Shown: positions 33,985 to 46,548, numbered from the stretch's first letter. The stretch: 64,000 bases of DNA from an uncultured Verrucomicrobiae bacterium (GCA_963714695.1 CAVQPQ010000003.1:616866-680865), one strand, 5' to 3'. The notes: generated by a model from the sequence alone, not told the origin. Numbers and translations: made by a program.

Positions 33985-35511
33985 TCACGCCCACAACTGG
34001 CGATCCAGCGAGCGATATTGAATCGCTTCCGATATGTGGTCGCTCAGGATTTTTTCCGAGCCGGCCAGGTCGGCGATCGTACGCGCCACCTTCAAAATCC
34101 GGTCGTAGGCCCGGGCGCTCAAATTCAAATCGGCCATCGCGTGCTTGAGCAGTTCCTTGGTCGCCTCGTCCAACGCGCAGAATTCCTTGAGTTCCTTCGG
34201 ACCCATGATCGCGTTGCAGGTGATTTTCCGCTTGTGCGCAAATCGCGTCTGCTGCCGTTTCCGCGCTTGGACGACGCGCTCGCGGATTTGCGCCGAGGTC
34301 TCGCCCGTGCGGTCGCCGGCGATCTCCCGGAATTTCACCTGCGGCACTTCCACATGCAAATCAATCCGATCCAGCAACGGCCCCGAAATCCGGCCCAGAT
34401 AATTTTGGATTTCGCGCGGCGAACTTTTTGATTCGCCGGGCATTTTGCCGTCCGGTGTCGGGTTCATCGCCGCGACGAGCATGAATTGTGACGGAAAGGT
34501 CATCGTGCCCGCCGCGCGCGAAATCGTCACGCGGCCTTCTTCCAGCGGCTGGCGCATCGTCTCCAGCACGCTGCGTTTGAACTCCGGCAGTTCGTCCAGA
34601 AACAACACGCCGTTGTGCGCCAGCGAAATTTCGCCGGGCGTCGGATTGATGTTGCCGCCGAGCAAACCGGCGTCGCTCGCCGTGTGATGCGGCGTGCGAA
34701 ATGGCCGGCGCGTTACCAGCGCCTGGCCCGGCCCCAGCAAACCAACGATGCTGTGAATCTTCGTGGTTTCGAGCGCTTCGTCCAAAGTCAGCGGCGGCAG
34801 AATCGTCGGCAGCCGCTTGGCGAGCATGGATTTGCCGGTGCCGGGCGGACCGATGAGCAGCGCGTTGTGTCCGCCGGCGGCGGCAATTTCCAGGGCGCGC
34901 TTCACATTCTCCTGGCCTTTGACCTCGGCGAAATCCAAGTCGTCGTCATGCGTTTGATCGAAAATTTTGGCAATGTCCACCTTGGTCGGCGCGATTTTGA
35001 TTTCGCCTTCCAGAAAGCCGGCGGCCTCGCGCAAATTCTGCACCGGGATGACTTGCAAGCCCTCAACGACCGCGGCCTCGGCGGCGTTTTCCGCCGGCAC
35101 GAGCACGCCGATCTTGCCTTCGGCTTTGGCGCGCAGGGCGACGGGCAAAACGCCCTTGCACGGGCGCACCGCGCCGGTCAGCGCGAGTTCGCCCACGATG
35201 ACAAAATTGTCGAGCTGGTCGGTTTCGACTTGTTCGCTGGCGGCCAGCATGCCGACGGCGATGGGCAGATCAAAGCTCGGCCCCTCCTTTTTCACGTCGG
35301 CGGGCGCGAGATTGATGGTGGTGCGCCCCATCGGAAATTTGAAACCGGAATTCGTGAGCGCGGTCGAGACCCGGTCGCGCGATTCCTTCACCGCGGCGTC
35401 CGGCAGGCCGACGATGACGACGATGCTGTCACCAAAACCGCAGTTGACCTCGACTTCAACCGCGTAGGCGTCAATGCCGTTCAAGGCGGCGGAGCAAACC
35501 CTGGTAAGCAT
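33985..35511 (-). CDS. comM: YifB/ComM family Mg-chelatase-like AAA+ ATPase
   Basis: MLTRVCSAALNGIDAYAVEVEV...LLIGPPGTGKSMLA...GVLFLDELPEF. The 106-aa N-terminal extension in the ORF track overlaps the neighbour's conserved leader and is rejected. Confidence 0.9.
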   Translation of the reverse strand: MLTRVCSAALNGIDAYAVEVEVNCGFGDSIVVIVGLPDAAVKESRDRVSTALTNSGFKFPMGRTTINLAPADVKKEGPSFDLPIAVGMLAASEQVETDQLDNFVIVGELALTGAVRPCKGVLPVALRAKAEGKIGVLVPAENAAEAAVVEGLQVIPVQNLREAAGFLEGEIKIAPTKVDIAKIFDQTHDDDLDFAEVKGQENVKRALEIAAAGGHNALLIGPPGTGKSMLAKRLPTILPPLTLDEALETTKIHSIVGLLGPGQALVTRRPFRTPHHTASDAGLLGGNINPTPGEISLAHNGVLFLDELPEFKRSVLETMRQPLEEGRVTISRAAGTMTFPSQFMLVAAMNPTPDGKMPGESKSSPREIQNYLGRISGPLLDRIDLHVEVPQVKFREIAGDRTGETSAQIRERVVQARKRQQTRFAHKRKITCNAIMGPKELKEFCALDEATKELLKHAMADLNLSARAYDRILKVARTIADLAGSEKILSDHISEAIQYRSLDRQLWA

Positions 35512-35827
35512 GGGGAATGGTTGCGCCAGCCAGTGGGAAATGCAACCGGGATTTTTGGCAACGCGAAAGACCCTGATCCGACCGGCTCGAAAAGGGTGTC
35601 TGATACAAGCATGAATCATCGCGCCGGACTGTGGCTGATGGTGTGCCAAGTGAAAAGGGTTGGGAAGGGGGGTGAAATGATGGTTGCAAAAGGGTTGCAA
35701 AGGATGTGCAAACGAGATGCGGAAGAATTGCTGGCGGCAAGTGGGTTGCGCCTTCTGCTCGTCCGTCCCCGGCCCGGGGTTTTTGAAGCTTGTTTCGGTC
35801 GGGCATGACGTGTAGAGGGTAGGCCGC

Positions 35828-38050
35828 ATGAATCAATTCACGCGCCGGGTTTTGTTTCTCCTGTTTTTTTTATCCGGGTTTTGCAGCCTCGCGTATCAGG
35901 TAGTCTGGACACGCATGGCTTTTGCGTCTTTCGGGATCATTACTCCGGTGCTCTCCGTGGTGCTTTCGGTGTTCATGCTGGGACTGGGGGTGGGTTCATG
36001 GGCGGGTGGGTGCTGGATCTCCGGCTTGGTCCGGAGAACGGGCCGGTCAGCCATCATCTTTTACGCCTTTGCCGAACTGTTGATCGGGGTGGGCGCGTTT
36101 GCGGTTCCGAAGTTGTTCGCCTTGGGCGAGCACACTTTGCTGGCAACCGGTCAGACGGATTCATTCCGTTATCTGTCGCTTTCGGCCCTGGTCCTGACGG
36201 CCGCCATTCTGCCCTGGTGTGTGTGCATGGGCACAACCTTCCCCTTCATGATGGCCTACATCCGGGAGCAGTACCGTGACGACACGCAAAGTTTCAGTTT
36301 TCTTTACCTCGCGAATGTGCTTGGCGCCATGAGCGGGACATTACTGACGGCGGTCGTCTGGGTGGAAATCCTGGGATTCCGCCACACCCTTTGGCTGGCG
36401 GCCGCCAGTAACTTCACCATTGCCACCATCGGCGTCGCTCTGGGCTGGCGGCGGCATCCGGCGGTCGTCCCGCAGGAAAAGGCCGGGCACCCGGCCCCTG
36501 ACACCGGATCGCCACGTTCTCCGATGCTTCCGGGATGGATGATCAAGGTGATTTTGTTTGCAACCGGTTTTGTCGCCATGGCCATGGAGGTGGTTTGGAC
36601 CCGTGCATTCACACCGGTCTTGAAAACCCAGGTGTATTCCTTCGCTCTGATTGTTTTCACCTATTTGGGGGCCACTTTTCTTGGCTCGTTGATGTATCGC
36701 CGGGATCTGCGAAGGCATTGTCCCCGTTCGATTGGGAAATTGATTTCCGCGCTGGCGATCACGGTTTTTCTGCCGGTACTGGCCAACGATTCGCGGCTGG
36801 TGACGGCACATTTCTGGACCAGTTCCATGGATGCAGTCAGCGCGATGATTGTACTGGCCAGCCTTTGCCCTTTTTGCGCTTTGTTGGGTTATTTGACCCC
36901 GGGCCTGATTGATGAGTATGGAGCCGGTCGGCCGAAAAACGCCGGACAGGCCTACGCCATCAATGTCCTGGGCTGCATCCTGGGTCCGCTCTTCGCCTGC
37001 TATGTATTACTTCCCCGCTGTAGCGAGCGTCATGCCTTGATTCTACTCAGCCTGCCGTTTCTGGCGCTGGGCTTCTTTCTTTACCAACCCCGTTTCCAGT
37101 GGCAACGCTGGGGGATGGGATTCGCCACCGGAGCGGTGCTCGTCTGGGCCGCGTTCTTCTCCGAAGATTTTGAAGGGATGCTGTCAAAAAGCGCCAAGCA
37201 CACCGTTATCCGGCGGGATTACACCGCGTCGGTTATTTCCTTCGGCGAAGGCTCGGAGCGGTTTCTGCTGGTCAATGGCATTGGCATGACCCGGTTGACG
37301 CCCATTACCAAGTTCATGGCCCATTTGCCACTGGCTTTTCACAATGGCCGCCCGGAATCGGCTCTGATCATCTGTTTCGGCATGGGCACAACCTATCGCT
37401 CGGCCTTGAGTTGGAAGCTCCAGACCACCGCCGTGGAACTGGTGCCTAGCGTGATGAATGCTTTTGGATTTTATCATCCGGATGCGGCGCGCTTTGTCAA
37501 CGACCCCAACGGACGAATTGTCATTGATGATGGCCGGCGTTATCTCAACCGTATCACCAATAAATTCGACGTCATCGTGGTTGACCCGCCGCCACCGGTT
37601 GAAGCGGCCGGTTCCAGTCTGCTCTTTTCCCGGGAGTTCTGCGTTCTGGCCCGACAACATTTGAAGCCCGGCGGTATTCTTCAATTATGGTATCCCGGTG
37701 GGAACGACAACACCACGGCCGAAGCCGTCGTCCGCGCGGTCCGTGAGTCGTTTCCCTGCATGCGCTGCTTCCCATCAATGGAAGGCGGAGGCCTGCATCT
37801 GCTCGCCTCCTCGGAACCCATCGAGATGCAGACCGCTGCAGCCTTGGCGGCGAACATGCCCGCCGCCGCAAAAACCGATTTGTTAGAGTGGAGCCCTTCC
37901 CCCAATTTGCCAGGTTATTTAAACTTGGTTGTCGCGCACGAAATTCCCATCAAAAATCTCTTAAATTCCAACCCTAAAGTTCAAATCACCGATGACCACC
38001 CCTTCAACGAGTATTATCTGTTACGGCAGTTGGGCCTGGGTTGGCGCTGA
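35828..38050 (+). CDS. Polytopic membrane protein fused to a spermidine-synthase-fold (class I SAM-dependent transferase) domain, tandem copy 1
   Basis: 740 aa. N-terminus FFLSGFCSLAYQVVWTRMAF plus ~12 hydrophobic segments. C-terminal domain ICFGMGTTYRS...FDVIVVDPPPPVEAAGSSLLFSREF...LKPGGILQLW. Confidence 0.85.
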   Translation: MNQFTRRVLFLLFFLSGFCSLAYQVVWTRMAFASFGIITPVLSVVLSVFMLGLGVGSWAGGCWISGLVRRTGRSAIIFYAFAELLIGVGAFAVPKLFALGEHTLLATGQTDSFRYLSLSALVLTAAILPWCVCMGTTFPFMMAYIREQYRDDTQSFSFLYLANVLGAMSGTLLTAVVWVEILGFRHTLWLAAASNFTIATIGVALGWRRHPAVVPQEKAGHPAPDTGSPRSPMLPGWMIKVILFATGFVAMAMEVVWTRAFTPVLKTQVYSFALIVFTYLGATFLGSLMYRRDLRRHCPRSIGKLISALAITVFLPVLANDSRLVTAHFWTSSMDAVSAMIVLASLCPFCALLGYLTPGLIDEYGAGRPKNAGQAYAINVLGCILGPLFACYVLLPRCSERHALILLSLPFLALGFFLYQPRFQWQRWGMGFATGAVLVWAAFFSEDFEGMLSKSAKHTVIRRDYTASVISFGEGSERFLLVNGIGMTRLTPITKFMAHLPLAFHNGRPESALIICFGMGTTYRSALSWKLQTTAVELVPSVMNAFGFYHPDAARFVNDPNGRIVIDDGRRYLNRITNKFDVIVVDPPPPVEAAGSSLLFSREFCVLARQHLKPGGILQLWYPGGNDNTTAEAVVRAVRESFPCMRCFPSMEGGGLHLLASSEPIEMQTAAALAANMPAAAKTDLLEWSPSPNLPGYLNLVVAHEIPIKNLLNSNPKVQITDDHPFNEYYLLRQLGLGWR

Positions 38051-38306
38051 TTCGCTCTTAACCTGAGCCGACAAAACTTAGTTCCGACAGGGATTTGAAT
38101 TGGATGACTCGCCCGCCAGTTCGCCAGGCGCAACTGCGGCACGACTTCACCGAAGCCGATTATGATGTAGCAGCGTTCAGCAGACCGCCGCATCTCTTTT
38201 CCATGTTTTTTCAGATGGCGGCGCTCTGCCGAAAGCCGCTGCATTCCCCGGCCCAAGGTTTTTGAAGCTTGTCCCGGGCGGGCATGACGTGTAGAGGGTA
38301 GGCCGC

Positions 38307-40525
38307 ATGAATCAATTCACGCGCCGGGTTTTGTTTCTCCTGTTTTTTTTATCCGGGTTTTGCAGTCTCGCTTATCAGGTGGTATGGACGCGCATGGCCT
38401 TTGCCTCGTTCGGCATCATCACTCCGGTGCTTTCCGTGGTGTTGTCGGTCTTCATGCTGGGACTGGCCGCCGGTTCCTGGGCGGGCGGGCGATGCATTGT
38501 TTCACTGGTTGAGAAAACCGGGCTTTCGGCGGTCGTCTTTTACGCGGGCGCGGAATTTTTGATCGGACTGGGCGCGTTCGCGGTTCCCAAATTATTTGCC
38601 ATGGGCGAGCACATTTTGCTGGCCGCGGGTCAAACCAATTCCATCGGCTACCTTTCCTTGTCGGCCCTGGTTCTGGCGTTTTCCATTCTGCCCTGGTGCC
38701 TGTTCATGGGGACAACCTTTCCCCTGATGATGGCTTACATCCGGGAGCGGGACTGTAAAAACACGGAAAGTTTCAGCTTTCTCTATCTGGCCAACGTGTT
38801 GGGGGCGATGAGCGGCACGCTTTTGACCGCCGTGGTTCTGGTCGAACTGTTGGGATTCCGCCACACGCTTTGGGTGGCGGCCGCCGGCAATTTCACCATC
38901 ACCTTCATCGGAGGTTGTCTGGGCTGGAAACAACGAGATTTTGCGGCCAGGGGCTTGACGGAGGCGGATAATTCAGCCGGGCCGGGCAACCCGCCCTCCG
39001 CTGGCCCTTCCCGCAGCCGGCTGATCAAATGGATTTTGTTTTCGACGGGTTTTGGCGCAATGGCCATGGAAGTGGTTTGGACGCGCGCGTTCACGCCGGT
39101 TTTGAAAACACAGGTGTATTCCTTTGCCCTGGTCGTCTTTACCTATCTGGGCGCAACGTTTGCCGGCTCGTGGTGGTATCGCCATCATCTCAGAAATAAG
39201 TCACCTTGGCCGGTGGCAACACTGATGGCGCTGCTCGTGATCGCCGTTTTTCTTCCCGTGGCAGTCAACGACCCCAGAATTGTGAACATGGACTGGATGT
39301 TTACCGTCTATGTCGGCAGCGCGATGATGGTGCTGGCGAGCATCGTACCGCTTTGTGCCATCCTGGGGTATTTGACGCCGAGTTTGATTGACGGATATGC
39401 CGGCGGCCAGCCCGGCCTTGCCGGCGAGGCTTATGCCATCAATGTTCTCGGTTGCATTTTGGGGCCGTTGTTCGCCTGCTATGTTCTGTTGCCTTGGATG
39501 GGCGAGTCCTGCGCGCTGATGATTCTCAGCCTGCCTTTTTTGGCGTTTTATTTTCTTGGTTGGAAATCGCTACCCATGGGACAACGCCTGTTTTCGAGTC
39601 TGGCCGCTGGCGCGCTCGCGAGCTATTCATTGTTTTTCCCACACAACTATCAAGATTATGTGTCGAGGCAATCCAGCCGGATGGAAGTGCGGCGGGACTA
39701 TGCCGCCTCGGTCATTTCCGCCCAGGTGGTGGGCGGCAAGGTGCTTTTGGTTAATGGCATCGGCATGACCAAACTGACGCCGATCACCAAATTCATGGTT
39801 CATTTGCCGCTGGCTTTTCATCTAGGAAAACCTGAATCGGCGCTGATCATCTGCTTCGGCATGGGCACCAGCTACCGGTCGGCATTGAGCTGGGACATTG
39901 ATACCACAGCGGTGGAATTGGTGCCCAGCGTGACGAAGGCGTTCGGATTTTACCACACCAACGCGGCGCAAATTCTGGCCAATCCCAAAGGACACGTCGT
40001 GATTGACGACGGGCGGCGTTTTCTTCGACGCACCCGGGAAAAATTTGACGTGATTGTGATTGACCCGCCGCCACCGGTGGAAACTGCCGGGTCCAGCCTC
40101 CTTTTTTCCGCGGAATTTTACGCCCTGGCCAAACAGCATTTGAACCCGCACGGAATTCTCCAGGCTTGGTTCCCCGGGGAGATCGGGTGACCACGCAAGC
40201 CGCCTTGCGCTCCATTCACGACGCGTTCCCCCACGTGCGTTGTTTTCATTCCGTGGAAGGCTGGGGCATGCACATGCTGGCGTCAATGGATCCCGTCGAA
40301 GTGCCGACCCCCGAACAACTCCTGGTGCGCATGCCCGCCAGTGCAAGCAACGACTTGTTGGAATGGTCCGACGCCCGTGATTTGCCTGCGTATGTGGGAC
40401 AGGTGGTTTTGCGCGAGGTCCCCGTTGAAAAAAGCCTCAACCCGGATTCCGCAATTCAAATCACCGATGACCATCCCCTCAACGAATACTTCCTGTTGCG
40501 ACAGAAGGGCCTGTTTGAATACTGA
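38307..40525 (+). pseudogene. Tandem copy 2 of the same family, interrupted by a 1-nt frame change in a C4G4 run (40172-40179)
   Basis: ORF 38307-40190 ends ...ILQAWFPGEIG*. ORF 40166-40525 continues the homology (DRVTTQAALRSIHDAFPHVRCF...) in another frame. Confidence 0.8.
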
Positions 40526-40691
40526 CGTCCCTTCGCTGCCGGCACATCCGGCGCCGGACCTGGCGAGCCGGTGGACAGACTGCAACTCGACGCAAAGCCG
40601 TTCGCGCAGGCATTGTTTGCTGAAAACGACCTGAGTTATTGGAAGGATTGAAGCTTGTATGAACCGATCAACGCGTGTAGTTGTAAACTCC

Positions 40692-42896
40692 ATGAATCAA
40701 TTCACGCGCCGGGTTTTGTTTCTCCTGTTTTTTTTATCCGGGTTTTGCAGTCTCGCTTATCAGGTGGTATGGACGCGCATGGCCTTTGCCTCGTTCGGCA
40801 TCATCACTCCGGTGCTTTCCGTGGTGTTGTCGGTCTTCATGCTGGGACTGGCCGCCGGTTCCTGGGCGGGCGGGCGATGCATTGTTTCACTGGTTGAGAA
40901 AACCGGGCTTTCGGCGGTCGTCTTTTACGCGGGCGCGGAATTTTTGATCGGACTGGGCGCGTTCGCGGTTCCCAAATTATTTGCCATGGGCGAGCACATT
41001 TTGCTGGCCGCGGGTCAAACCAATTCCATCGGCTACCTTTCCTTGTCGGCCCTGGTTCTGGCGTTTTCCATTCTGCCCTGGTGCCTGTTCATGGGGACAA
41101 CCTTTCCCCTGATGATGGCTTACATCCGGGAGCGGGACTGTAAAAACACGGAAAGTTTCAGCTTTCTCTATCTGGCCAACGTGTTGGGGGCGATGAGCGG
41201 CACGCTTTTGACCGCCGTGGTTCTGGTCGAACTGTTGGGATTCCGCCACACGCTTTGGGTGGCGGCCGCCGGCAATTTCACCATCACCTTCATCGGAGGT
41301 TGTCTGGGCTGGAAACAACGAGATTTTGCGGCCAGGGGCTTGACGGAGGCGGATAATTCAGCCGGGCCGGGCAACCCGCCCTCCGCTGGCCCTTCCCGCA
41401 GCCGGCTGATCAAATGGATTTTGTTTTCGACGGGTTTTGGCGCAATGGCCATGGAAGTGGTTTGGACGCGCGCGTTCACGCCGGTTTTGAAAACACAGGT
41501 GTATTCCTTTGCCCTGGTCGTCTTTACCTATCTGGGCGCAACGTTTGCCGGCTCGTGGTGGTATCGCCATCATCTCAGAAATAATCGTCGGCACTCGCTG
41601 GCGGAACTGATTGGCTGGCTGACGGTGGCGGCCTTCCTCCCCGTCCTGGTCAATGATCCCCGATTCGTGAAGGCGAACTGGCTCTATAGCGCCGATCTCA
41701 TCAGTACGGTTATTGTGCTGGCCAGCATTTGCCCGCTCTGCGCGATCCTGGGTTATCTGACTCCGAGCCTGATTGATGAATACTCGGCTGGCCGGCCGGC
41801 TGATGCCGGCGAAGCTTATGCGATCAATGTCCTCGGTTGCATCTTGGGACCGTTGTTCGCATCCTATATTTTGCTGCCTTGGATCAGCGAGCGATATGCG
41901 TTGATCGTCCTCGGCCTGCCTCTGGCGGTGTTTTACATCCTCAGTTGCAAATCACTGTCTTGGCCGAAACGCCTGGGATGGGGGCTTGGCACCCTGGTGG
42001 CACCGGTCCTGGCGCTGTTTTTTTCACGGGATTTTGAAGGCTTGCTGCTGAGTCAGAACAATAACATGGTTGTCCGGCGTGATTACGCCGCTTCCGTCAT
42101 TTCCTTTGGCAAAGGATTGGACAAAAAACTGCTGGTTAACGGCATGGGCATGACCTCCCTGACGCCGATCACCAAATTCATGGTTCATTTGCCGCTGGCT
42201 TTTCATCCAGGAAAACCTGAATCGGCGCTGATCATCTGCTTCGGCATGGGCACCAGCTACCGGTCGGCATTGAGCTGGGACATTGATACCACAGCGGTGG
42301 AATTGGTGCCCAGCGTGACGAAGGCGTTCGGATTTTACCACACCAACGCGGCGCAAATTCTGGCCAATCCCAAAGGACACGTCGTGATTGACGACGGGCG
42401 GCGTTTTCTTCGACGCACCCGGGAAAAATTTGACGTGATTGTGATTGACCCGCCGCCACCAGTTCAGGCTGCGGGTTCCAGCCTGCTCTATTCCAGGGAA
42501 TTTTATGCGTTGGCCAGAGAACATCTCAAGCCCGGCGGCATCCTCCAGATGTGGTTCCCGGTGGGAGAGAACGTGACGGAACAGGCCATCGTTCGTTCCA
42601 TCCACGAGTCGTTCCCTTACGTGCGTTACTTTCCATCCGTAGAAGGCTGGGGCCTTCATATGCTGGCTTCTGGGGAACCCATCGAAACGCTTGACGCAAA
42701 CCAATTGGCAGCGCGAATGCCGGAAGGGGCAAAAACAGACATGATGGAATGGACTTCCGCCCGGGATGTGCCCTATTACATCGGGTTGGTGATATCCCAC
42801 GAAATCCCCCCCCAAAAAATCCTCAACCCCGACCCCGCAATCCACATTACCGACGACCAACCCTTTAACGAATATTATTTGCTTCGAGAGTTGTAA
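40692..42896 (+). CDS. Tandem copy 3 of the same family
   Basis: The start is taken at the conserved MNQFTRRVLF. An upstream ATG at 40659 is an alternative. The first 296 aa are identical to copy 2. Confidence 0.85.
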   Translation: MNQFTRRVLFLLFFLSGFCSLAYQVVWTRMAFASFGIITPVLSVVLSVFMLGLAAGSWAGGRCIVSLVEKTGLSAVVFYAGAEFLIGLGAFAVPKLFAMGEHILLAAGQTNSIGYLSLSALVLAFSILPWCLFMGTTFPLMMAYIRERDCKNTESFSFLYLANVLGAMSGTLLTAVVLVELLGFRHTLWVAAAGNFTITFIGGCLGWKQRDFAARGLTEADNSAGPGNPPSAGPSRSRLIKWILFSTGFGAMAMEVVWTRAFTPVLKTQVYSFALVVFTYLGATFAGSWWYRHHLRNNRRHSLAELIGWLTVAAFLPVLVNDPRFVKANWLYSADLISTVIVLASICPLCAILGYLTPSLIDEYSAGRPADAGEAYAINVLGCILGPLFASYILLPWISERYALIVLGLPLAVFYILSCKSLSWPKRLGWGLGTLVAPVLALFFSRDFEGLLLSQNNNMVVRRDYAASVISFGKGLDKKLLVNGMGMTSLTPITKFMVHLPLAFHPGKPESALIICFGMGTSYRSALSWDIDTTAVELVPSVTKAFGFYHTNAAQILANPKGHVVIDDGRRFLRRTREKFDVIVIDPPPPVQAAGSSLLYSREFYALAREHLKPGGILQMWFPVGENVTEQAIVRSIHESFPYVRYFPSVEGWGLHMLASGEPIETLDANQLAARMPEGAKTDMMEWTSARDVPYYIGLVISHEIPPQKILNPDPAIHITDDQPFNEYYLLREL

Positions 42897-43065
42897 CCGC
42901 TCAAATTCCCCAGGCTGACAACAACGAGGAGGCCGGCCAGAGGGCGCAGGGTTTGCCGCCATTCGCACCGAGTACGGGGTTGGGTGATCTGCATGACAGA
43001 TTGATTCCGGCCCTAGGTTTTTGAAGCTTGTCCCGGGCAGGCATGACGTGTAGAGGGTAAGCCGC

Positions 43066-45285
43066 ATGAACCAATTCATACGACGGGTTTTGTTTTCCCT
43101 GTTTTTTTTGTCCGGTTTTTGCAGCCTCGTCTATCAGGTCGTTTGGACGCGCATGGCCTTTGCCTCGTTCGGGATCATTACTCCGGTTCTGTCCGTGGTG
43201 CTCTCGGTCTTCATGCTGGGACTGGCGGTGGGCTCCTGGGGCGGAGGCCGGTTCATCGCCGTACTGGTGCAAAAGACCGGGATGTCGGCAGCCATCTTTT
43301 ACGCCCTGGCGGAAACGGTGATTGGGGTGGGGGCCTTTGCAGTTCCAAGGCTGTTTACGGCGGGGGAGCATTTTCTGCTGGCGACTGGCCAGACCAATTC
43401 GGTGAGTTATCTGGCCTTTTCAGCACTGGTATTGGCGGCGTCAATATTGCCGTGGTGCGTGTGCATGGGGGCGACGTTTCCGTTGATGATGGCGTACGTG
43501 CGGGAACGGGAGCGCGGGAGCACGGAAAGTTTCAGTTTTTTGTATCTGGCCAATGTGCTGGGGGCGATGAGCGGGACAATAATTACAGCCGTGGTGTTGG
43601 TGGAGTTGTTGGGATTTCGGCACACGTTGTGGCTGGCGGCGGCGGGGAACTTCAGCATTGCGATGATCAGTGGGTGGCTGGGGTGGCGGCTGCGTGGTTC
43701 CATCGCCAGTCTCCCACGGGAGGCGAAAGGTCCTCCGGCGGGAGCGGCTGACCAACGGCGGCCCGGTTTGTCCAGCCGGTGGATCAAATGGATATTGTTT
43801 ACAACGGGATTTGGCGCGATGGCGATGGAGGTGGTTTGGACGCGGGCGTTCACCCCGGTGTTGAAGACGGAGGTGTATTCGTTTGCGATGATCGTGTTCA
43901 CGTATTTGGGGGCGACTTTCTTAGGTTCATGGCGGTATCGGCGCGATCTCAAAAAAAAATCATTGTGGCCGGCGGCCAAGTTGATTGCGCTTTTGACCAT
44001 TGCGGTTTTCCTGCCCATCCTGGCCAGCGACCCCACGTTCGTGAGGATGGACTTGACGGAATCAAAATATGTCACCAGCGCGATCATTGTCCTGGCCAGC
44101 ATCTGTCCGTTTTGTGCCGTTCTGGGTTATCTGACCCCCAGCCTGATTGACGCATACGCCACCGGCTCTCCGGCAGTGGCGGGCCGGGCCTATGCGCTCA
44201 ACGTTCTCGGTTGCATTTTGGGGCCGCTCTTCGCGTCCTATGTTTTGCTGCCGTGGGTGGGCGAGCGATCCGCCATCATTGTGCTCAGCCTGCCCTTTCT
44301 TGGGTTTTATTTACTTTGCGGGAAATCCCTGACTCATCGGTGGCGCTGGGGATTCGGACTGGCGGCCGGCACGACTCTGGCCTGGTCCTGGTTTTGCTCG
44401 GGAGACTTTCAAAGTTTTGTATCGAGCAACGGGAAAGAAACCGTGGTGCGAAGAGACTATGCCGCAGAGGTCATTTCCTGTTATGAAGGGGACGGCAAAC
44501 GTCTTTTGGTCAATGGCATTGGCATGACCGTCTTGACTCCCATCACCAAATTCATGGTTCATTTGCCGCTGGCTTTTCATCAGGGAAAACCGGAATCGGC
44601 CCTGGTTATTTGTTTCGGCATGGGCACTACTTATCGTTCCGCTTTGAGCTGGGATATTGACACCACGGCGGTGGAACTGGTGCCGGGTGTGACGAAGGCT
44701 TTTGGATTTTATCACGCGGATGCGGCACAGGTGCTCAACAATTCCAAGGGCCGCATTGTTGTGGATGACGGGCGGCGCTTTCTGATGCGGACCCGGCAAA
44801 AGTTTGACGTGATTGTCATTGACCCGCCGCCACCGCCGGAAGCGGCGGGTTCCAGCCTGCTCTATTCCAAAGAATTTTATGAGCTCGCCCGGCAACACAT
44901 GAAACCCCACGGGATTCTCCAGGCGTGGTTTCCGCGTGGGGAGGCGGTGACCGTTCAGGCCGTCGTCCGGTCCCTCCAGGATTCATTTCCGTATGTCCGT
45001 TGTTTTCTTTCCGCGGAAAAATGGGGTGTTCATTTGCTGGCTTCCGCGGAGCCAATCGAAATGCTCGAGGCGCAGCAGCTTGCGGCGCGGATGCCCGCCA
45101 AGGCAAAGCAGGATTTGTTGGAATGGGATCCTTCCCAGGAGGTGTCTGCTTACATCGAACGGGTCGTTACCAACGAATATTCCGTCCCCACCATCCTCAA
45201 CCCCAACCTCAAAGTCCAAATTACCGATGACCACCCATTCAATGAATATTTCCTGCTGCGGCGGTCGGGTCTGTATGGGCATTGA
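43066..45285 (+). CDS. Tandem copy 4 of the same family
   Basis: 739 aa: MNQFIRRVLFSLFFLSGFCSLVYQVVWTRMAF...VIVIDPPPPPEAAGSSLLYSKEF. Confidence 0.85.
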   Translation: MNQFIRRVLFSLFFLSGFCSLVYQVVWTRMAFASFGIITPVLSVVLSVFMLGLAVGSWGGGRFIAVLVQKTGMSAAIFYALAETVIGVGAFAVPRLFTAGEHFLLATGQTNSVSYLAFSALVLAASILPWCVCMGATFPLMMAYVRERERGSTESFSFLYLANVLGAMSGTIITAVVLVELLGFRHTLWLAAAGNFSIAMISGWLGWRLRGSIASLPREAKGPPAGAADQRRPGLSSRWIKWILFTTGFGAMAMEVVWTRAFTPVLKTEVYSFAMIVFTYLGATFLGSWRYRRDLKKKSLWPAAKLIALLTIAVFLPILASDPTFVRMDLTESKYVTSAIIVLASICPFCAVLGYLTPSLIDAYATGSPAVAGRAYALNVLGCILGPLFASYVLLPWVGERSAIIVLSLPFLGFYLLCGKSLTHRWRWGFGLAAGTTLAWSWFCSGDFQSFVSSNGKETVVRRDYAAEVISCYEGDGKRLLVNGIGMTVLTPITKFMVHLPLAFHQGKPESALVICFGMGTTYRSALSWDIDTTAVELVPGVTKAFGFYHADAAQVLNNSKGRIVVDDGRRFLMRTRQKFDVIVIDPPPPPEAAGSSLLYSKEFYELARQHMKPHGILQAWFPRGEAVTVQAVVRSLQDSFPYVRCFLSAEKWGVHLLASAEPIEMLEAQQLAARMPAKAKQDLLEWDPSQEVSAYIERVVTNEYSVPTILNPNLKVQITDDHPFNEYFLLRRSGLYGH

Positions 45286-45297
45286 TTCGCATTTGAA

Positions 45298-46548
45298 ATG
45301 GACACGCGCCGAAAATTTCCTTCACCCTTGGACCTGAATCATCTGCGAGCAGCCCTTCGTCTGGCGCAGCGCGGTTATGGCACGACGTCGCCGAATCCGA
45401 TGGTAGGCGCGGTGCTGGTGAGGAACGGCCGAATCATCGGGCGCGGCTGGCACCGGCGCGCAGGCTTGCCGCACGCGGAAATCGAGGCGCTCCGCGACGC
45501 GCAAAAACGCGGCCATCCGGCAAAGGGCGCGACGCTTTACGTGACGCTCGAACCGTGTTGCACGCACGGACGCACGCCGCCTTGCACGGAAGCCCTCGTC
45601 GCGGCAGGAATCAAACGCGTGGTTGTCGGCACAACGGATCCGAATCCAACACATGCCGGCCGGGCTTTCAAAATTTTGCGCCGGGCAGGAATTGAAGTCA
45701 CGCCGCCTGGAAGCGCTGGTGTCCCGCCAGCCAGTCCCTCGATTCGCAACCCGGCAACTCGCCGGCAAGACGCCGGCACCCCCAGGGGGGACACTCTTGC
45801 AGCCGAATGCGAGCGATTGAACGAGGCTTTTAACCATTGGATTGTTCATCGTACACCGTTCGTCACCGTCAAAGCAGCCATGACGCTGGATGGCAAAATC
45901 GCCACGGCCACCGGCGAGTCGAAATGGATTACGGGCGAAAAAGCGCGGGCGCACGGCATGAAATTGCGTCGGGGCAGCGATGCGGTTCTCGTCGGGATCA
46001 ACACGATTTTGGCGGACAACCCGAGCCTTACGGCAAGGACGAAGATGGAAGGTGACAGATGGAAGATGGGCAAACAACTTCGGCGCATCGTTCTGGATTC
46101 GATGGCGCGGACACCGTTGACGGCGAAAGTGGTAAGCGACCAGCACGCGGCGCTGACAACCATCGTCGTGAGTAAATCAGCCCCGAAGAATCACGTTGCC
46201 GCCTTGTCGAAACGCGTAAATGTTGTCATCGCGCCATTGAAACAATCCGCAATCCGCAAATCGCAATCGCAAATTGACTTGCGCTGGCTGCTAAAAAAAT
46301 TGGGCGCGGAAAACGTGACGAGCCTGCTGGTAGAAGGCGGCGGGGAGGTGAACGCTTCGTTTTTGCTCGGCGGTTTCGCGCAGCGTGTGGCGTTTTTCTA
46401 CGCGCCGAAAATTCTGGGCGGACGTGATTCGCGCAAAGCCGTCGCAGGCGAAGGCGCCCGGAGCCTGGCGGAGACGATTCAGCTTCGAGATGTCGAGTGG
46501 AAGCGGCTTGGATCGGATTTGTTGCTCAAGGCGCGGGTCATTCCGTAG
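45298..46548 (+). CDS. ribD: Bifunctional riboflavin biosynthesis protein RibD (deaminase/reductase) carrying a repeat-derived insertion
   Basis: HAEIEAL...TLEPCCTHGRTPPC deaminase motif. TVKAAMTLDGKIA and SLLVEGGGEV reductase motifs. Extra segment PPGSAGVPPASPSIRNPATRRQDAGTPRGD between the domains. Confidence 0.9.
   Translation: MDTRRKFPSPLDLNHLRAALRLAQRGYGTTSPNPMVGAVLVRNGRIIGRGWHRRAGLPHAEIEALRDAQKRGHPAKGATLYVTLEPCCTHGRTPPCTEALVAAGIKRVVVGTTDPNPTHAGRAFKILRRAGIEVTPPGSAGVPPASPSIRNPATRRQDAGTPRGDTLAAECERLNEAFNHWIVHRTPFVTVKAAMTLDGKIATATGESKWITGEKARAHGMKLRRGSDAVLVGINTILADNPSLTARTKMEGDRWKMGKQLRRIVLDSMARTPLTAKVVSDQHAALTTIVVSKSAPKNHVAALSKRVNVVIAPLKQSAIRKSQSQIDLRWLLKKLGAENVTSLLVEGGGEVNASFLLGGFAQRVAFFYAPKILGGRDSRKAVAGEGARSLAETIQLRDVEWKRLGSDLLLKARVIP
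45706..45789. repeat. REP-like hairpin element inside ribD (same family as 14993-15071 and 20755-20840)
   Basis: cctggaagcgctggtgtcccgccagc ... gccggcaagacgccggcacccccagg forms an imperfect inverted repeat. Confidence 0.75.

Follow-up and report, generated by a model that had tools for sequence, protein, structure and literature searches.

Evidence for patchwise recombinational homogenisation between tandem fused MFS/spermidine synthase-like paralogs of an uncultured Verrucomicrobiae bacterium

How do two neighbouring genes come to share long blocks of identical DNA, when the sequence between these blocks is clearly diverged? The question is raised by a locus of an uncultured Verrucomicrobiae bacterium (GCA_963714695.1, CAVQPQ010000003.1:616866-680865), analysed here over a stretch of 64,000 nt, hereafter the window. 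The genome is of the Limisphaerales type, from an uncultured soil/peat Verrucomicrobium, and upstream of ribD the locus carries a tandem array of four paralogs of the "fused MFS/spermidine synthase" family (NF037959):

35828-38050, plus strand: copy 1 (c1), 740 aa, an ORF with Pfam Spermine_synth and NCBIfam NF037959 matches, outside the identical blocks
38307-40525, plus strand: copy 2 (c2), ORFs 38307-40190 and 40166-40525, read in the window as 627 aa followed by a shifted tail
40176-40179, plus strand: run of four G in c2 (five G in three other assemblies), from assembly comparison
40692-42896, plus strand: copy 3 (c3), 734 aa, a mosaic according to the informative-site map and to sliding identity to L010_3/L013_1 versus L010_1
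43066-45285, plus strand: copy 4 (c4), 739 aa, an ORF with a Pfam match, outside the identical blocks

Here and below, L numbers designate the assemblies and related loci used for comparison. The c1 gene shares 68-70% nucleotide identity with the other copies and has L042_1 as its ortholog, c2 is orthologous to L010_1, L086_1p and L087_1p across all available length, and the orthologs of c4 are L010_2 (for its 3' part) and L086_3. All copies are under purifying selection (dN/dS about 0.15-0.3), which indicates, at the level of substitution patterns, that all four encode functional proteins. The frameshift of c2 in the window corresponds to a 1-nt deletion in the G run; the extra G is present in L001, L002 and L003, the three assemblies in which c2 is intact and encodes 739 aa. 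The same frameshift is found in a second noisy contig, P0060. It is probably a homopolymer sequencing error in the window. Rfam searches gave no match, either with a permissive E-value over 33-48 kb or at the gathering threshold over the whole window, no tRNAs were found, and a promoter and terminator scan of the array showed no enrichment over shuffles, leaving nothing usable on transcription units. A link between the array and the upstream YifB/ComM-like gene was dropped, since relatives do not preserve the synteny of the two.

With respect to the encoded proteins, c3, c1 and c4 score 65.7, 58.5 and 63.2 bits, respectively, against the NF037959 HMM, all above its cut-off of 40. The N-terminal domain is predicted to be polytopic, with about 13 TM helices within aa 3-444, and the modelled C-terminal domain matches SpeE structures (1uir, TM 0.66, E=7e-11). 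SpeE possesses a glycine-rich GGGxG loop and a D-x-x-D-P catalytic motif. Assignment to canonical SpeE was rejected, both on scores against TIGR00417 and PRK00811 (55.6 bits for a cut-off of 249.55, and 69 bits for a cut-off of 260, respectively) and on the motifs: in the alignment, GGGEG of Thermus thermophilus SpeE is replaced by FGMGT and DLTDP by DPPPP, with the second Asp missing. The paralogs are described here as putative membrane-anchored, aminopropyltransferase-like or spermidine-synthase-like proteins. A literature search on the biology of the fused MFS/spermidine synthase family or on its concerted evolution returned nothing relevant.

The c2 and c3 genes alternate between identical blocks (A and C) and diverged segments (B and D, the latter being the 3' parts):

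38306-39199, plus strand: block A (block 1) in c2, 0 mismatches against 40691-41584, dS=0
39200-39773, plus strand: segment B of c2, diverged (c3 counterpart 41585-42158), each copy with its own orthologs
39774-40075, plus strand: block C (block 2) in c2, 1 mismatch in 302 nt, at the offset of 2385 nt
40691-41584, plus strand: block A in c3, c2-type at 147 consecutive informative sites
42159-42460, plus strand: block C in c3, c2-type at 50 consecutive informative sites

An earlier note on this DNA, made from the sequence alone, had described an 893-bp identity between 38307-39199 and 40692-41584 and a 302-bp one between 39774-40075 and 42159-42460 with a single mismatch. Both are borne out, block A comprising 894 nt from 38306/40691 (gene position -1 to nt 893, with an offset of 2385 nt between the copies) and the lone mismatch of block C lying at 39823/42208; a C/T polymorphism among assemblies is also found inside block C, at 39880. 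The identical antisense ORFs that the note listed follow merely from the underlying DNA being identical. As it had also stated, the roughly 570 bp between the blocks and the 3' ends are diverged: c2 and c3 are 46-86% identical in 50-nt windows over the 574 nt of segment B, and about 50-70% identical in segment D when a 1-nt indel is allowed. The sliding-window profile shows sharp blocks rather than a smooth decay of identity. Within the window, blocks A and C have no further copies beyond the corresponding parts of c1 and c4, at about 74-81% identity. Block A encodes aa 1-298, covering predicted TM helices 1-8 and a disordered loop (the helix map being taken from an AF2 model), and segment B encodes aa 299-489, with predicted TM helices 9-13 and the N-terminal beta sub-domain. 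Block C (gene nt 1468-1769, aa 490-590) is predicted to encode that half of the Rossmann fold which binds SAM, as far as the DPPPP loop.

Identity had been proposed to begin exactly at the ATG because the leaders differ. The leaders do differ, but identity opens one base upstream of the ATG. Two leader types are present in the array:

35769-35827, plus strand: type I leader of c1 (repeat families D3/D5 and leader alignment)
38248-38306, plus strand: type I leader of c2 (repeat families D3/D5 and leader alignment)
40633-40691, plus strand: type II leader of c3 (leader alignment and L086 start region)
43007-43065, plus strand: type I leader of c4 (repeat families D3/D5 and leader alignment)

Apart from a short core (TTGAAGCTTGT ... 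CGTGTAG), type II is unrelated to type I; its orthologs are the leaders that precede L010_2, L016_3, L013_1 and L086_2. The 5' limit of identity at the start codon is therefore explained by the leaders of c2 and c3 being non-homologous.

The contrast between blocks and segments is most evident at synonymous sites. Between c2 and c3, dS is 0 in block A (225 synonymous sites) and 0.014 in block C, versus 1.16 in segment B (dN 0.36) and 1.10 in segment D, while the other paralog pairs have a dS of 0.9-1.9 throughout. The homogenised part of the gene thus consists of two segments, about 54% of its length, the remainder having a dS above 1. A GENECONV-type test, which the earlier note had proposed, was carried out as a site permutation in our own implementation rather than with the GENECONV program (987 polymorphic sites, 10,000 permutations). 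The matching runs of c2 and c3 span 320 and 68 polymorphic sites. No permutation gave a run above 35, so that P<1e-4 for each block, and the longest run in any other pair is at most 8 polymorphic sites. A possible conversion between c1 and c2 at the 5' end (98% identity over the first 60 nt) was weak (P=0.03) and was not retained; this similarity is better explained by conservation, as the same leader and start region are kept across species.

Phylogenetic placement changes along the gene in the same manner. In segments B and D, segment NJ trees and sliding identity associate c2 of the window with L010_1, c3 with L010_3/L013_1, c4 with L010_2 and c1 with L042_1, whereas c3 clusters with c2-type sequences in blocks A and C. 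Read along c3, informative sites are c2-type (147 sites), then mostly c3-type, then c2-type again (50 sites) and finally c3-type, so that the gene is composed of a c2-type block A, a c3-type segment B, a c2-type block C and a c3-type segment D (A2-B3-C2-D3). Together, block-wise identity, the dS contrast, the permutation tests and phylogenetic incongruence support recombinational homogenisation between these tandem paralogs.

Pairwise MAFFT scanning of related genomes revealed comparable tracts elsewhere. Copies 1 and 2 of L010 are identical from -1 to +820, copies 1 and 3 of L016 from -18 to +1877, the c2 and c3 counterparts of L086 from the contig start (nt 750) to nt 874, and the copies of L087 over nt 684-877. 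The ends and partners of these tracts differ, and several likewise open near the start codon. L086, which is about 90% identical to the window, already has the A2-B3-C2-D3 mosaic of c3, and in its block C the paralogs are 92-97% identical, compared with about 90% for the orthologs of the window and L086. The paralogs are thus closer to each other there than the orthologs are, which points to repeated conversion after the split. Judged from these alignments, the c3 mosaic predates the split from this relative and has been re-homogenised since. The earlier note had read the patchwork as recent gene conversion or unequal recombination between tandem paralogs. Homologous exchange is supported. A lone unequal crossover does not suffice, because the leader, the middle segment and the 3' end of c3 are still of its own type; nor does one recent event, because the mosaic exists in L086 and was re-homogenised afterwards, and because analogous tracts occur elsewhere. 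What the sequence comparisons describe is ongoing, partial concerted evolution and not a single event.

As to polarity, c2 is c2-type over its whole length, and c3-type bodies found elsewhere (L010_3, L088_2 and L013_1) bear other heads; the comparison favours a movement of c2-type sequence into c3. Wherever a genome contains a c2-type gene, the head of this gene has already become uniform with that of a partner copy, and it is on parsimony that c2 would be the donor of block A. Four shared-derived sites suggest that the latest event in block C ran from c3 to c2. Conversion of blocks A and C may have taken a single patchy event or two separate ones.

One could instead suppose that c3 is a very recent duplicate of c2, whose middle and 3' end were overwritten by c3-type DNA, imported horizontally or derived from a lost copy. 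This would likewise leave identical and diverged parts arranged as they are today, and a reshuffling of heads and bodies between genomes is evident: the order is c2-c3-c4 in the window, and a c2-type gene, a c4-type body and a c3-type body in L010. However, c3 has its own type II leader and an upstream intergenic region orthologous to those of the second L010 gene and L086_2, and the closest donor found for B or D is only about 85-90% identical. In addition, L086 is collinear with the window (c2 3' end, c3, c4) at 90% identity and has the same mosaic, so that the c3-type body lies at an inherited position. With L086, the c3-type B and D segments are thus already seen, in part, to follow the species phylogeny at this place in the array, which speaks against a recent duplicate. 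We consider a recent duplication quite improbable on these grounds.

Reciprocal unequal crossing-over between misaligned copies, which generates hybrid genes and changes in copy number, has two observations in its favour. Copy number ranges from 1 to at least 4 across the relatives, and one short-read contig (L005) opens in the middle segment of c2, crosses block 2 and leads directly to the c3 3' end, as expected of a hybrid produced by deletion inside the 252-nt identical stretch. This join may equally be such a c2/c3 hybrid or a mis-traversal of the 302-nt repeat by a k=127 assembler. Moreover, an intact c2 beside a c3 whose leader, middle and tail are its own requires no fewer than four points of exchange, more than a single crossover provides, and crossing-over of this kind is highly unlikely to account for the array.

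The indel in the c2 homopolymer points to an error-prone long-read assembly of the window, and the blocks could in principle result from collapse or cross-polishing of paralogs. Against this, the same mosaic is present in ENA assemblies from three other samples (L001, L002 and L003), one of which is a different strain with 49 SNPs in the neighbouring gene, and related species have their own tracts with different end points. Independent short-read contigs also start exactly 127 nt, the k-mer length, inside the block ends (L005 for block 1, L006 and L007 for block 2), thereby breaking as they would at true repeats. Because the mosaic recurs across assemblies and the contigs break in this way, we judge from independent long and short assemblies that the repeat is very probably genuine and an artefact unlikely, to the point of being scarcely credible as the source of both blocks.

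Purifying selection alone, without recombination, is refuted: the protein regions best conserved across the family do lie in blocks A and C, but 225 and 74 synonymous sites with 0-1 differences are beyond the reach of selection at the protein level, the same regions have a dS of about 1 in other paralog pairs and of 0.3-0.4 between orthologs, and the unconserved disordered loop in block A (aa 207-240) is identical too.

Two specialised systems were also considered and rejected. Programmed cassette variation of the pilE/pilS or vlsE type does not fit four full-length copies that all possess a start codon preceded by a conserved leader; nor was high-frequency mosaic variation found, as the window, L001, L002 and L003 share one mosaic and the sole variant is the putative L005 hybrid contig. 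As for a diversity-generating retroelement, the 208 (B) and 138 (D) mismatches involve the four bases roughly equally, are enriched at third codon positions and show no adenine bias.

We therefore return to homologous exchange, and regard it as very probable that recombination, acting on direct repeats out of register, has time and again transferred two stretches of the gene between the old paralogs c2 and c3. These would be the 5' 894 nt (TM helices 1-8) and a 302-nt piece for the SAM-binding core, with the remainder left unexchanged. The process would presumably involve RecA-type strand invasion, or template switching at a stalled fork, using the sister chromosome or the same one. Exchanges would open and close where the paralogs are already most alike, i.e., in the first 180 nt or so and in conserved islands at nt about 720-870, 1440-1650 and 1740-1770. 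The three internal tract ends of the window do fall in conserved islands or structural loops. This could not be extended into a general rule, as the L010 tract ends mid-helix and the L016 tract (nt 1877) in a poorly conserved stretch. The c3 mosaic, in which a c3-type body bears the head and the SAM core of c2 type, would have arisen before the lineages split, and its renewal since then would explain why block A is at present 100% and block C 99.7% identical. The pattern would be accounted for by gene conversion of the non-reciprocal kind or by a double exchange; RecA dependence, non-reciprocity, the direction in which the latest events ran and any benefit under selection are likewise inferred.

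It is conceivable, if unlikely, that the array does not merely undergo recombination but works as a system for shuffling modules, with selection acting on the mosaic architecture itself. Fixed joints would then lie at the gene start and at nt about 720-890, 1440-1500 and 1740-1770, the latter ones in or near loops between structural elements. The modules (a TM1-8 head, TM9-13 with the beta sub-domain, the SAM core and the C-terminal lobe) would be reassorted among paralogs and species, head and SAM core being kept uniform, and the TM9-13 and C-terminal modules being specific to each paralog and perhaps to its substrate.

Several known systems resemble the exchange between c2 and c3. Recurrent conversion maintains within-genome near-identity of tufA/tufB and other prokaryotic paralogs (Wang & Chen 2018, PMC6053082). 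There, as here, paralogs are more alike than orthologs and synonymous sites are homogenised. In contrast, only two segments are concerned here, the copies are in tandem, the family is absent from the 26 genes listed in PMC6053082, and the time depth is that of species or genera as far as shown, compared with hundreds of millions of years in that study. In Helicobacter pylori, intragenomic recombination among babA, babB and babC yields chimeras with one paralog at the 5' end, from near the start codon, and another as the body (PMC4552749), and heads and bodies are reassorted in the present family too. The bab genes lie at scattered loci and code for adhesins exposed to the host; they are tied to phase variation via CT repeats, and their chimeras differ from isolate to isolate (PMC4552749). 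The genes described here, in contrast, stand in tandem and code for enzyme-like proteins of the inner membrane, a switch based on simple repeats was not seen, and one mosaic is common to four assemblies of the population. In repetitive families of Mycobacterium tuberculosis, short-tract conversion between paralogs is reported to be visible only with long-read assemblies (PMC13061034, PMC12046097). Repeats break short-read contigs in both cases; the present case differs in family and organism, and it has long tracts, of 0.3-1.9 kb, which are tied to the 5' end of the gene. Lastly, chimeric genes arise from paralog-to-paralog deletions in E. coli evolution experiments (PMC13626634). The L005 contig, possibly an assembly path error, resembles this type of chimera, in which one repeat unit is lost, while the main finding here, unlike those deletions, retains both copies.

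The mechanism is hence a known one, ordinary bacterial gene conversion, and the c2/c3 mosaic reveals no new one; it is the gene family that is new for it. The locus provides a well-resolved natural case in which paralogs with saturated synonymous divergence still swap 0.3-0.9-kb tracts, repeatedly and in several lineages. For the widespread fused MFS/spermidine synthase family, trees and ortholog calls depend on the segment used, and short-read MAGs break or mis-join at array loci. The chimeras, which are evidently tolerated, mark module boundaries and could guide domain-swap work on the function of this family.

The window carries, at 35828-45285 on the forward strand, four genes of about 2.2 kb each arranged head-to-tail (copies c1 to c4), each preceded by a leader of about 60 nt that belongs to one of two classes:

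33985-35829, minus strand: YifB/ComM-family Mg-chelatase-like AAA ATPase gene (TIGR00368, E=1e-189), divergent and adjoining c1
35769-35827, 38248-38306 and 43007-43065, plus strand: type I leader, upstream of c1, c2 and c4, respectively
40633-40691, plus strand: type II leader, upstream of c3, non-homologous to type I
35828-38050, plus strand: c1, gene of the four-copy array
38307-40525, plus strand: c2, gene of the four-copy array
40692-42896, plus strand: c3, gene of the four-copy array
43066-45285, plus strand: c4, gene of the four-copy array

The start-to-start distances c1-c2, c2-c3 and c3-c4 are 2479, 2385 and 2374 nt. Directly downstream lies ribD-ribE, a placement kept in many related genomes, in contrast to the YifB/ComM-like neighbor, which is not kept beside the array in relatives; the longest ORF of the latter gene (614 aa) overlaps the c1 start, and gene callers give a 508-aa version in other assemblies. 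The apparent source of the window is a 1.16-Mb contig in a Verrucomicrobiia MAG. In a scan of species-representative genomes, its relatives fall among peat and soil MAGs of Verrucomicrobiota/Limisphaerales, aa identity reaching 76-78% at most; most have a single copy, and only some have arrays. At one related locus, an unrelated 645-aa gene with a secreted-looking product (L010:12416-14353) separates the last array copy from ribD. Contigs with a Verrucomicrobia-type array gene, some also with ribD/ribE neighbors, are additionally held by MAGs labelled Bifidobacteriaceae, Sulfotelmatobacter, Limnocylindrales, Methylomirabilota or Baltobacteraceae (loci L021, L033, L034, L039, L045, L046, L066, L074, and L084), which probably reflects binning or labelling errors of public MAG sets.

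All four copies encode proteins of ~735-740 aa that match Pfam Spermine_synth at aa ~494-620 and exceed the curated cut-off of NCBIfam NF037959, "fused MFS/spermidine synthase". In the AlphaFold model of c3 (pLDDT 83, pTM 0.79), aa 3-444 contain ~13 long helices; a small beta sub-domain comes next and then a Rossmann-type domain, which superposes on aminopropyltransferases (1uir, E=7e-11). Canonical SpeE identity is ruled out, since the array proteins score far under the cut-off of the SpeE equivalog models and have FGMGT and DPPPP in place of the SpeE motifs GGGxG and DxxDP (c3 aa 516-521 and 586-590; window ~42237-42254 and ~42447-42461). Among 66 homologs, F517, G518, M519, G520, T521, D586, P587, P589, and P590 of c3 are invariant and P588 is conserved in at least 90%. 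The array family may lie outside the classical aminopropyltransferases.

Copies c2 and c3 share two blocks, offset by 2385 nt: 38306-39199 equals 40691-41584 (block A, 894 nt, no mismatch), and 39774-40075 equals 42159-42460 (block C, 302 nt, one mismatch at 39823/42208), which bears out the coordinates and counts of the earlier note. Between the blocks (segment B), c2-c3 identity is 46-86% per 50-nt window, and past block C (segment D) it returns to the level of any pair (68-71% overall). In a site-permutation test of our own in the spirit of GENECONV, the type of test that the earlier note had proposed (987 polymorphic sites, four copies, 10,000 permutations), c2-c3 matching runs reached 320 and 68 polymorphic sites, versus a permutation maximum of 35 and at most 8 for every other pair. 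The identity is block-wise rather than smooth, as had been claimed: block A has a c2-c3 dS (Nei-Gojobori) of 0 for 225 synonymous sites and block C one of 0.014, versus 1.16 and 1.10 in segments B and D.

The orthology of the window copies was read in segments B and D, from trees and sliding identity. There, the ortholog of c2 is L010_1 (~93% nt), those of c3 are L010_3 and L013_1 (~85%), that of c4 is L010_2 and that of c1 is L042_1. Orthologs differ by dS 0.17-0.42 versus 0.9-1.9 for paralogs, and the four paralogs hence long predate these species. Blocks A and C of c3 nonetheless resemble c2-type genes. Informative sites were those with one state in c2 and its ortholog and another in the c3 ortholog; along them, c3 shows 147 consecutive c2-type sites, then mostly c3-type states, then 50 consecutive c2-type sites, then c3-type states again. 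This alternation is the signature of gene conversion; together with the dS contrast and the incongruence of blocks and flanks, it supports and refines the gene conversion or recombination reading of the earlier note.

The 5' limit of the tract is set at -1 by the c3 leader, which, as noted before, differs from that of c2. Orthologs of the type II leader precede L010_2, L016_3, L013_1, and L086_2. Both classes share the core TTGAAGCTTGT...CGTGTAG and are without Rfam match, and window c1 and L010_1 do not differ in the final ~60 nt of the type I leader, although orthologs of these genomes have dS 0.2-0.4 at synonymous sites; the leader is probably a conserved element of the promoter or 5'-UTR. 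Identity had been said to begin exactly at the ATG; the block does start at -1, but the first 22 nt are equal in all copies, so that the true junction may lie anywhere from -1 to +23. The inner tract ends (nt 893, 1468, and 1769) fall at edges of the gene's most conserved islands and in predicted loops of the c3 AlphaFold model (aa 297-302, 490-492, and 586-595), a placement that fails for some tracts in relatives.

Every array with a c2-type gene has its own tract. Identity runs from -1 to +820 between copies 1 and 2 of L010, save one mismatch, from -18 to +1877 between the non-adjacent copies 1 and 3 of L016, and over nt 684-877 between the L087 copies. L086, which is collinear with the window across c2-c3-c4 at ~90% identity, has c2 and c3 counterparts identical from nt 750 (contig start) to nt 874, again 127 nt at a contig end. 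Segment typing gives window c3 and L086_2 the same architecture (c2-type A and C, c3-type B and D), and the mosaic is thus older than the split of these lineages. Further conversion has since taken place in both, very recently in the window lineage, so that "recent", as the earlier note had it, holds for this re-conversion and not for the mosaic itself. Elsewhere, c3-type bodies carry other heads (L010_3, L088_2, and L013_1) and c4-type bodies carry c2-type heads (L010_2 and L088_1). Window 38307-45285 and L010:5249-12199 have, after their first gene, an orthologous intergenic region and type II leader, but body order is c2, c3, c4 in the former and c2-type, c4-type, c3-type in the latter, which indicates that whole 3' bodies or heads were exchanged between array positions. 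Heads and bodies have therefore been reassorted more than once, centered on a junction at nt ~820-893.

Homologous recombination between misaligned direct repeats, with a non-reciprocal outcome, would be the simplest account. Blocks A and C could stem from one event with the middle patch restored or from two; in L086, block C is older than block A (block-C paralogs are 92-97% identical there, L086/window orthologs ~90%), which favors separate events. For the origin of the mosaic, entry of c2-type sequence into c3 is the best reading. The shared window block-C sequence has four derived states whose only other occurrence is in the L086 c3 ortholog (~0.4 expected by chance, a rough estimate), a hint that the latest block-C event was a back-conversion from c3 to c2. 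Two-way exchange would fit the dS between window c2 and its ortholog, higher in A (0.37) and C (0.31) than in B (0.18) and D (0.17).

That c3 is instead a recent duplicate into which B and D were imported later would also give c2-like blocks, but is disfavored, as c3 has inherited its position and leader and collinearity is kept. An assembly artefact is very unlikely as the source of the identical blocks, judging from contigs of independent assemblies. Exact-protein look-up retrieved the locus in other assemblies, and the mosaic is as in the window in three ENA assemblies from other samples, L001 (506-kb contig), L002, and L003. L002 is a distinct strain, with 49 differing sites in the YifB/ComM-like gene (34003-35483) and 12 in the c4 3' end and beyond (44530-45352), but only one SNP and an indel from c1 to mid-c4 (~9 kb) and essentially none in c1-c3, a patchiness suggesting recent recombinational replacement or a sweep over the array. 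Short-read contigs begin 127 nt before the end of block A (L005) or block C (L006 and L007), the expected break of a k=127 assembler at a true repeat. Copy 2 reads GGGG at 40176-40179 versus GGGGG in three other assemblies, the missing G cutting it to 627 aa; the shift recurs in a second, visibly error-prone contig (P0060, with truncated c3, P0003) and alongside either allele of a SNP at 39880, and probably reflects a homopolymer error in long-read assembly, not a pseudogene.

A single unequal crossover cannot have made the pattern, although L005:1-1100 (GCA_052916085.1, JBLFKW010247415.1) may show a product of one: it follows window 39073-39823 and then 42461 onward, from the c2 middle segment through block C to the c3 3' end, without mismatch to c2 before the switch or to c3 after it. 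The switch lies inside a 252-nt identical stretch; either that sample has a c2/c3 deletion hybrid or the repeat was traversed wrongly. Pure protein selection cannot yield the dS contrast, and the unconserved disordered loop at aa 207-240 lies in block A; a DGR is excluded by the mismatch spectrum, and cassette-type programmed variation fits poorly with full-length, constrained copies and a uniform population.

That paralogs in bacteria undergo gene conversion is well established. It has been described for tuf and other genes (PMC6053082), for chimeric bab genes of Helicobacter pylori, in which 5' exchanges lie close to the start codon (PMC4552749), and for Mycobacterium tuberculosis repeat families. 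Our literature search found no report of it for the fused MFS/spermidine synthase family. The process is hence a known one, bacterial paralog conversion, and what is new is the family in which it is found; noteworthy are the sharp partial tracts between paralogs of saturated dS and their recurrence across lineages.
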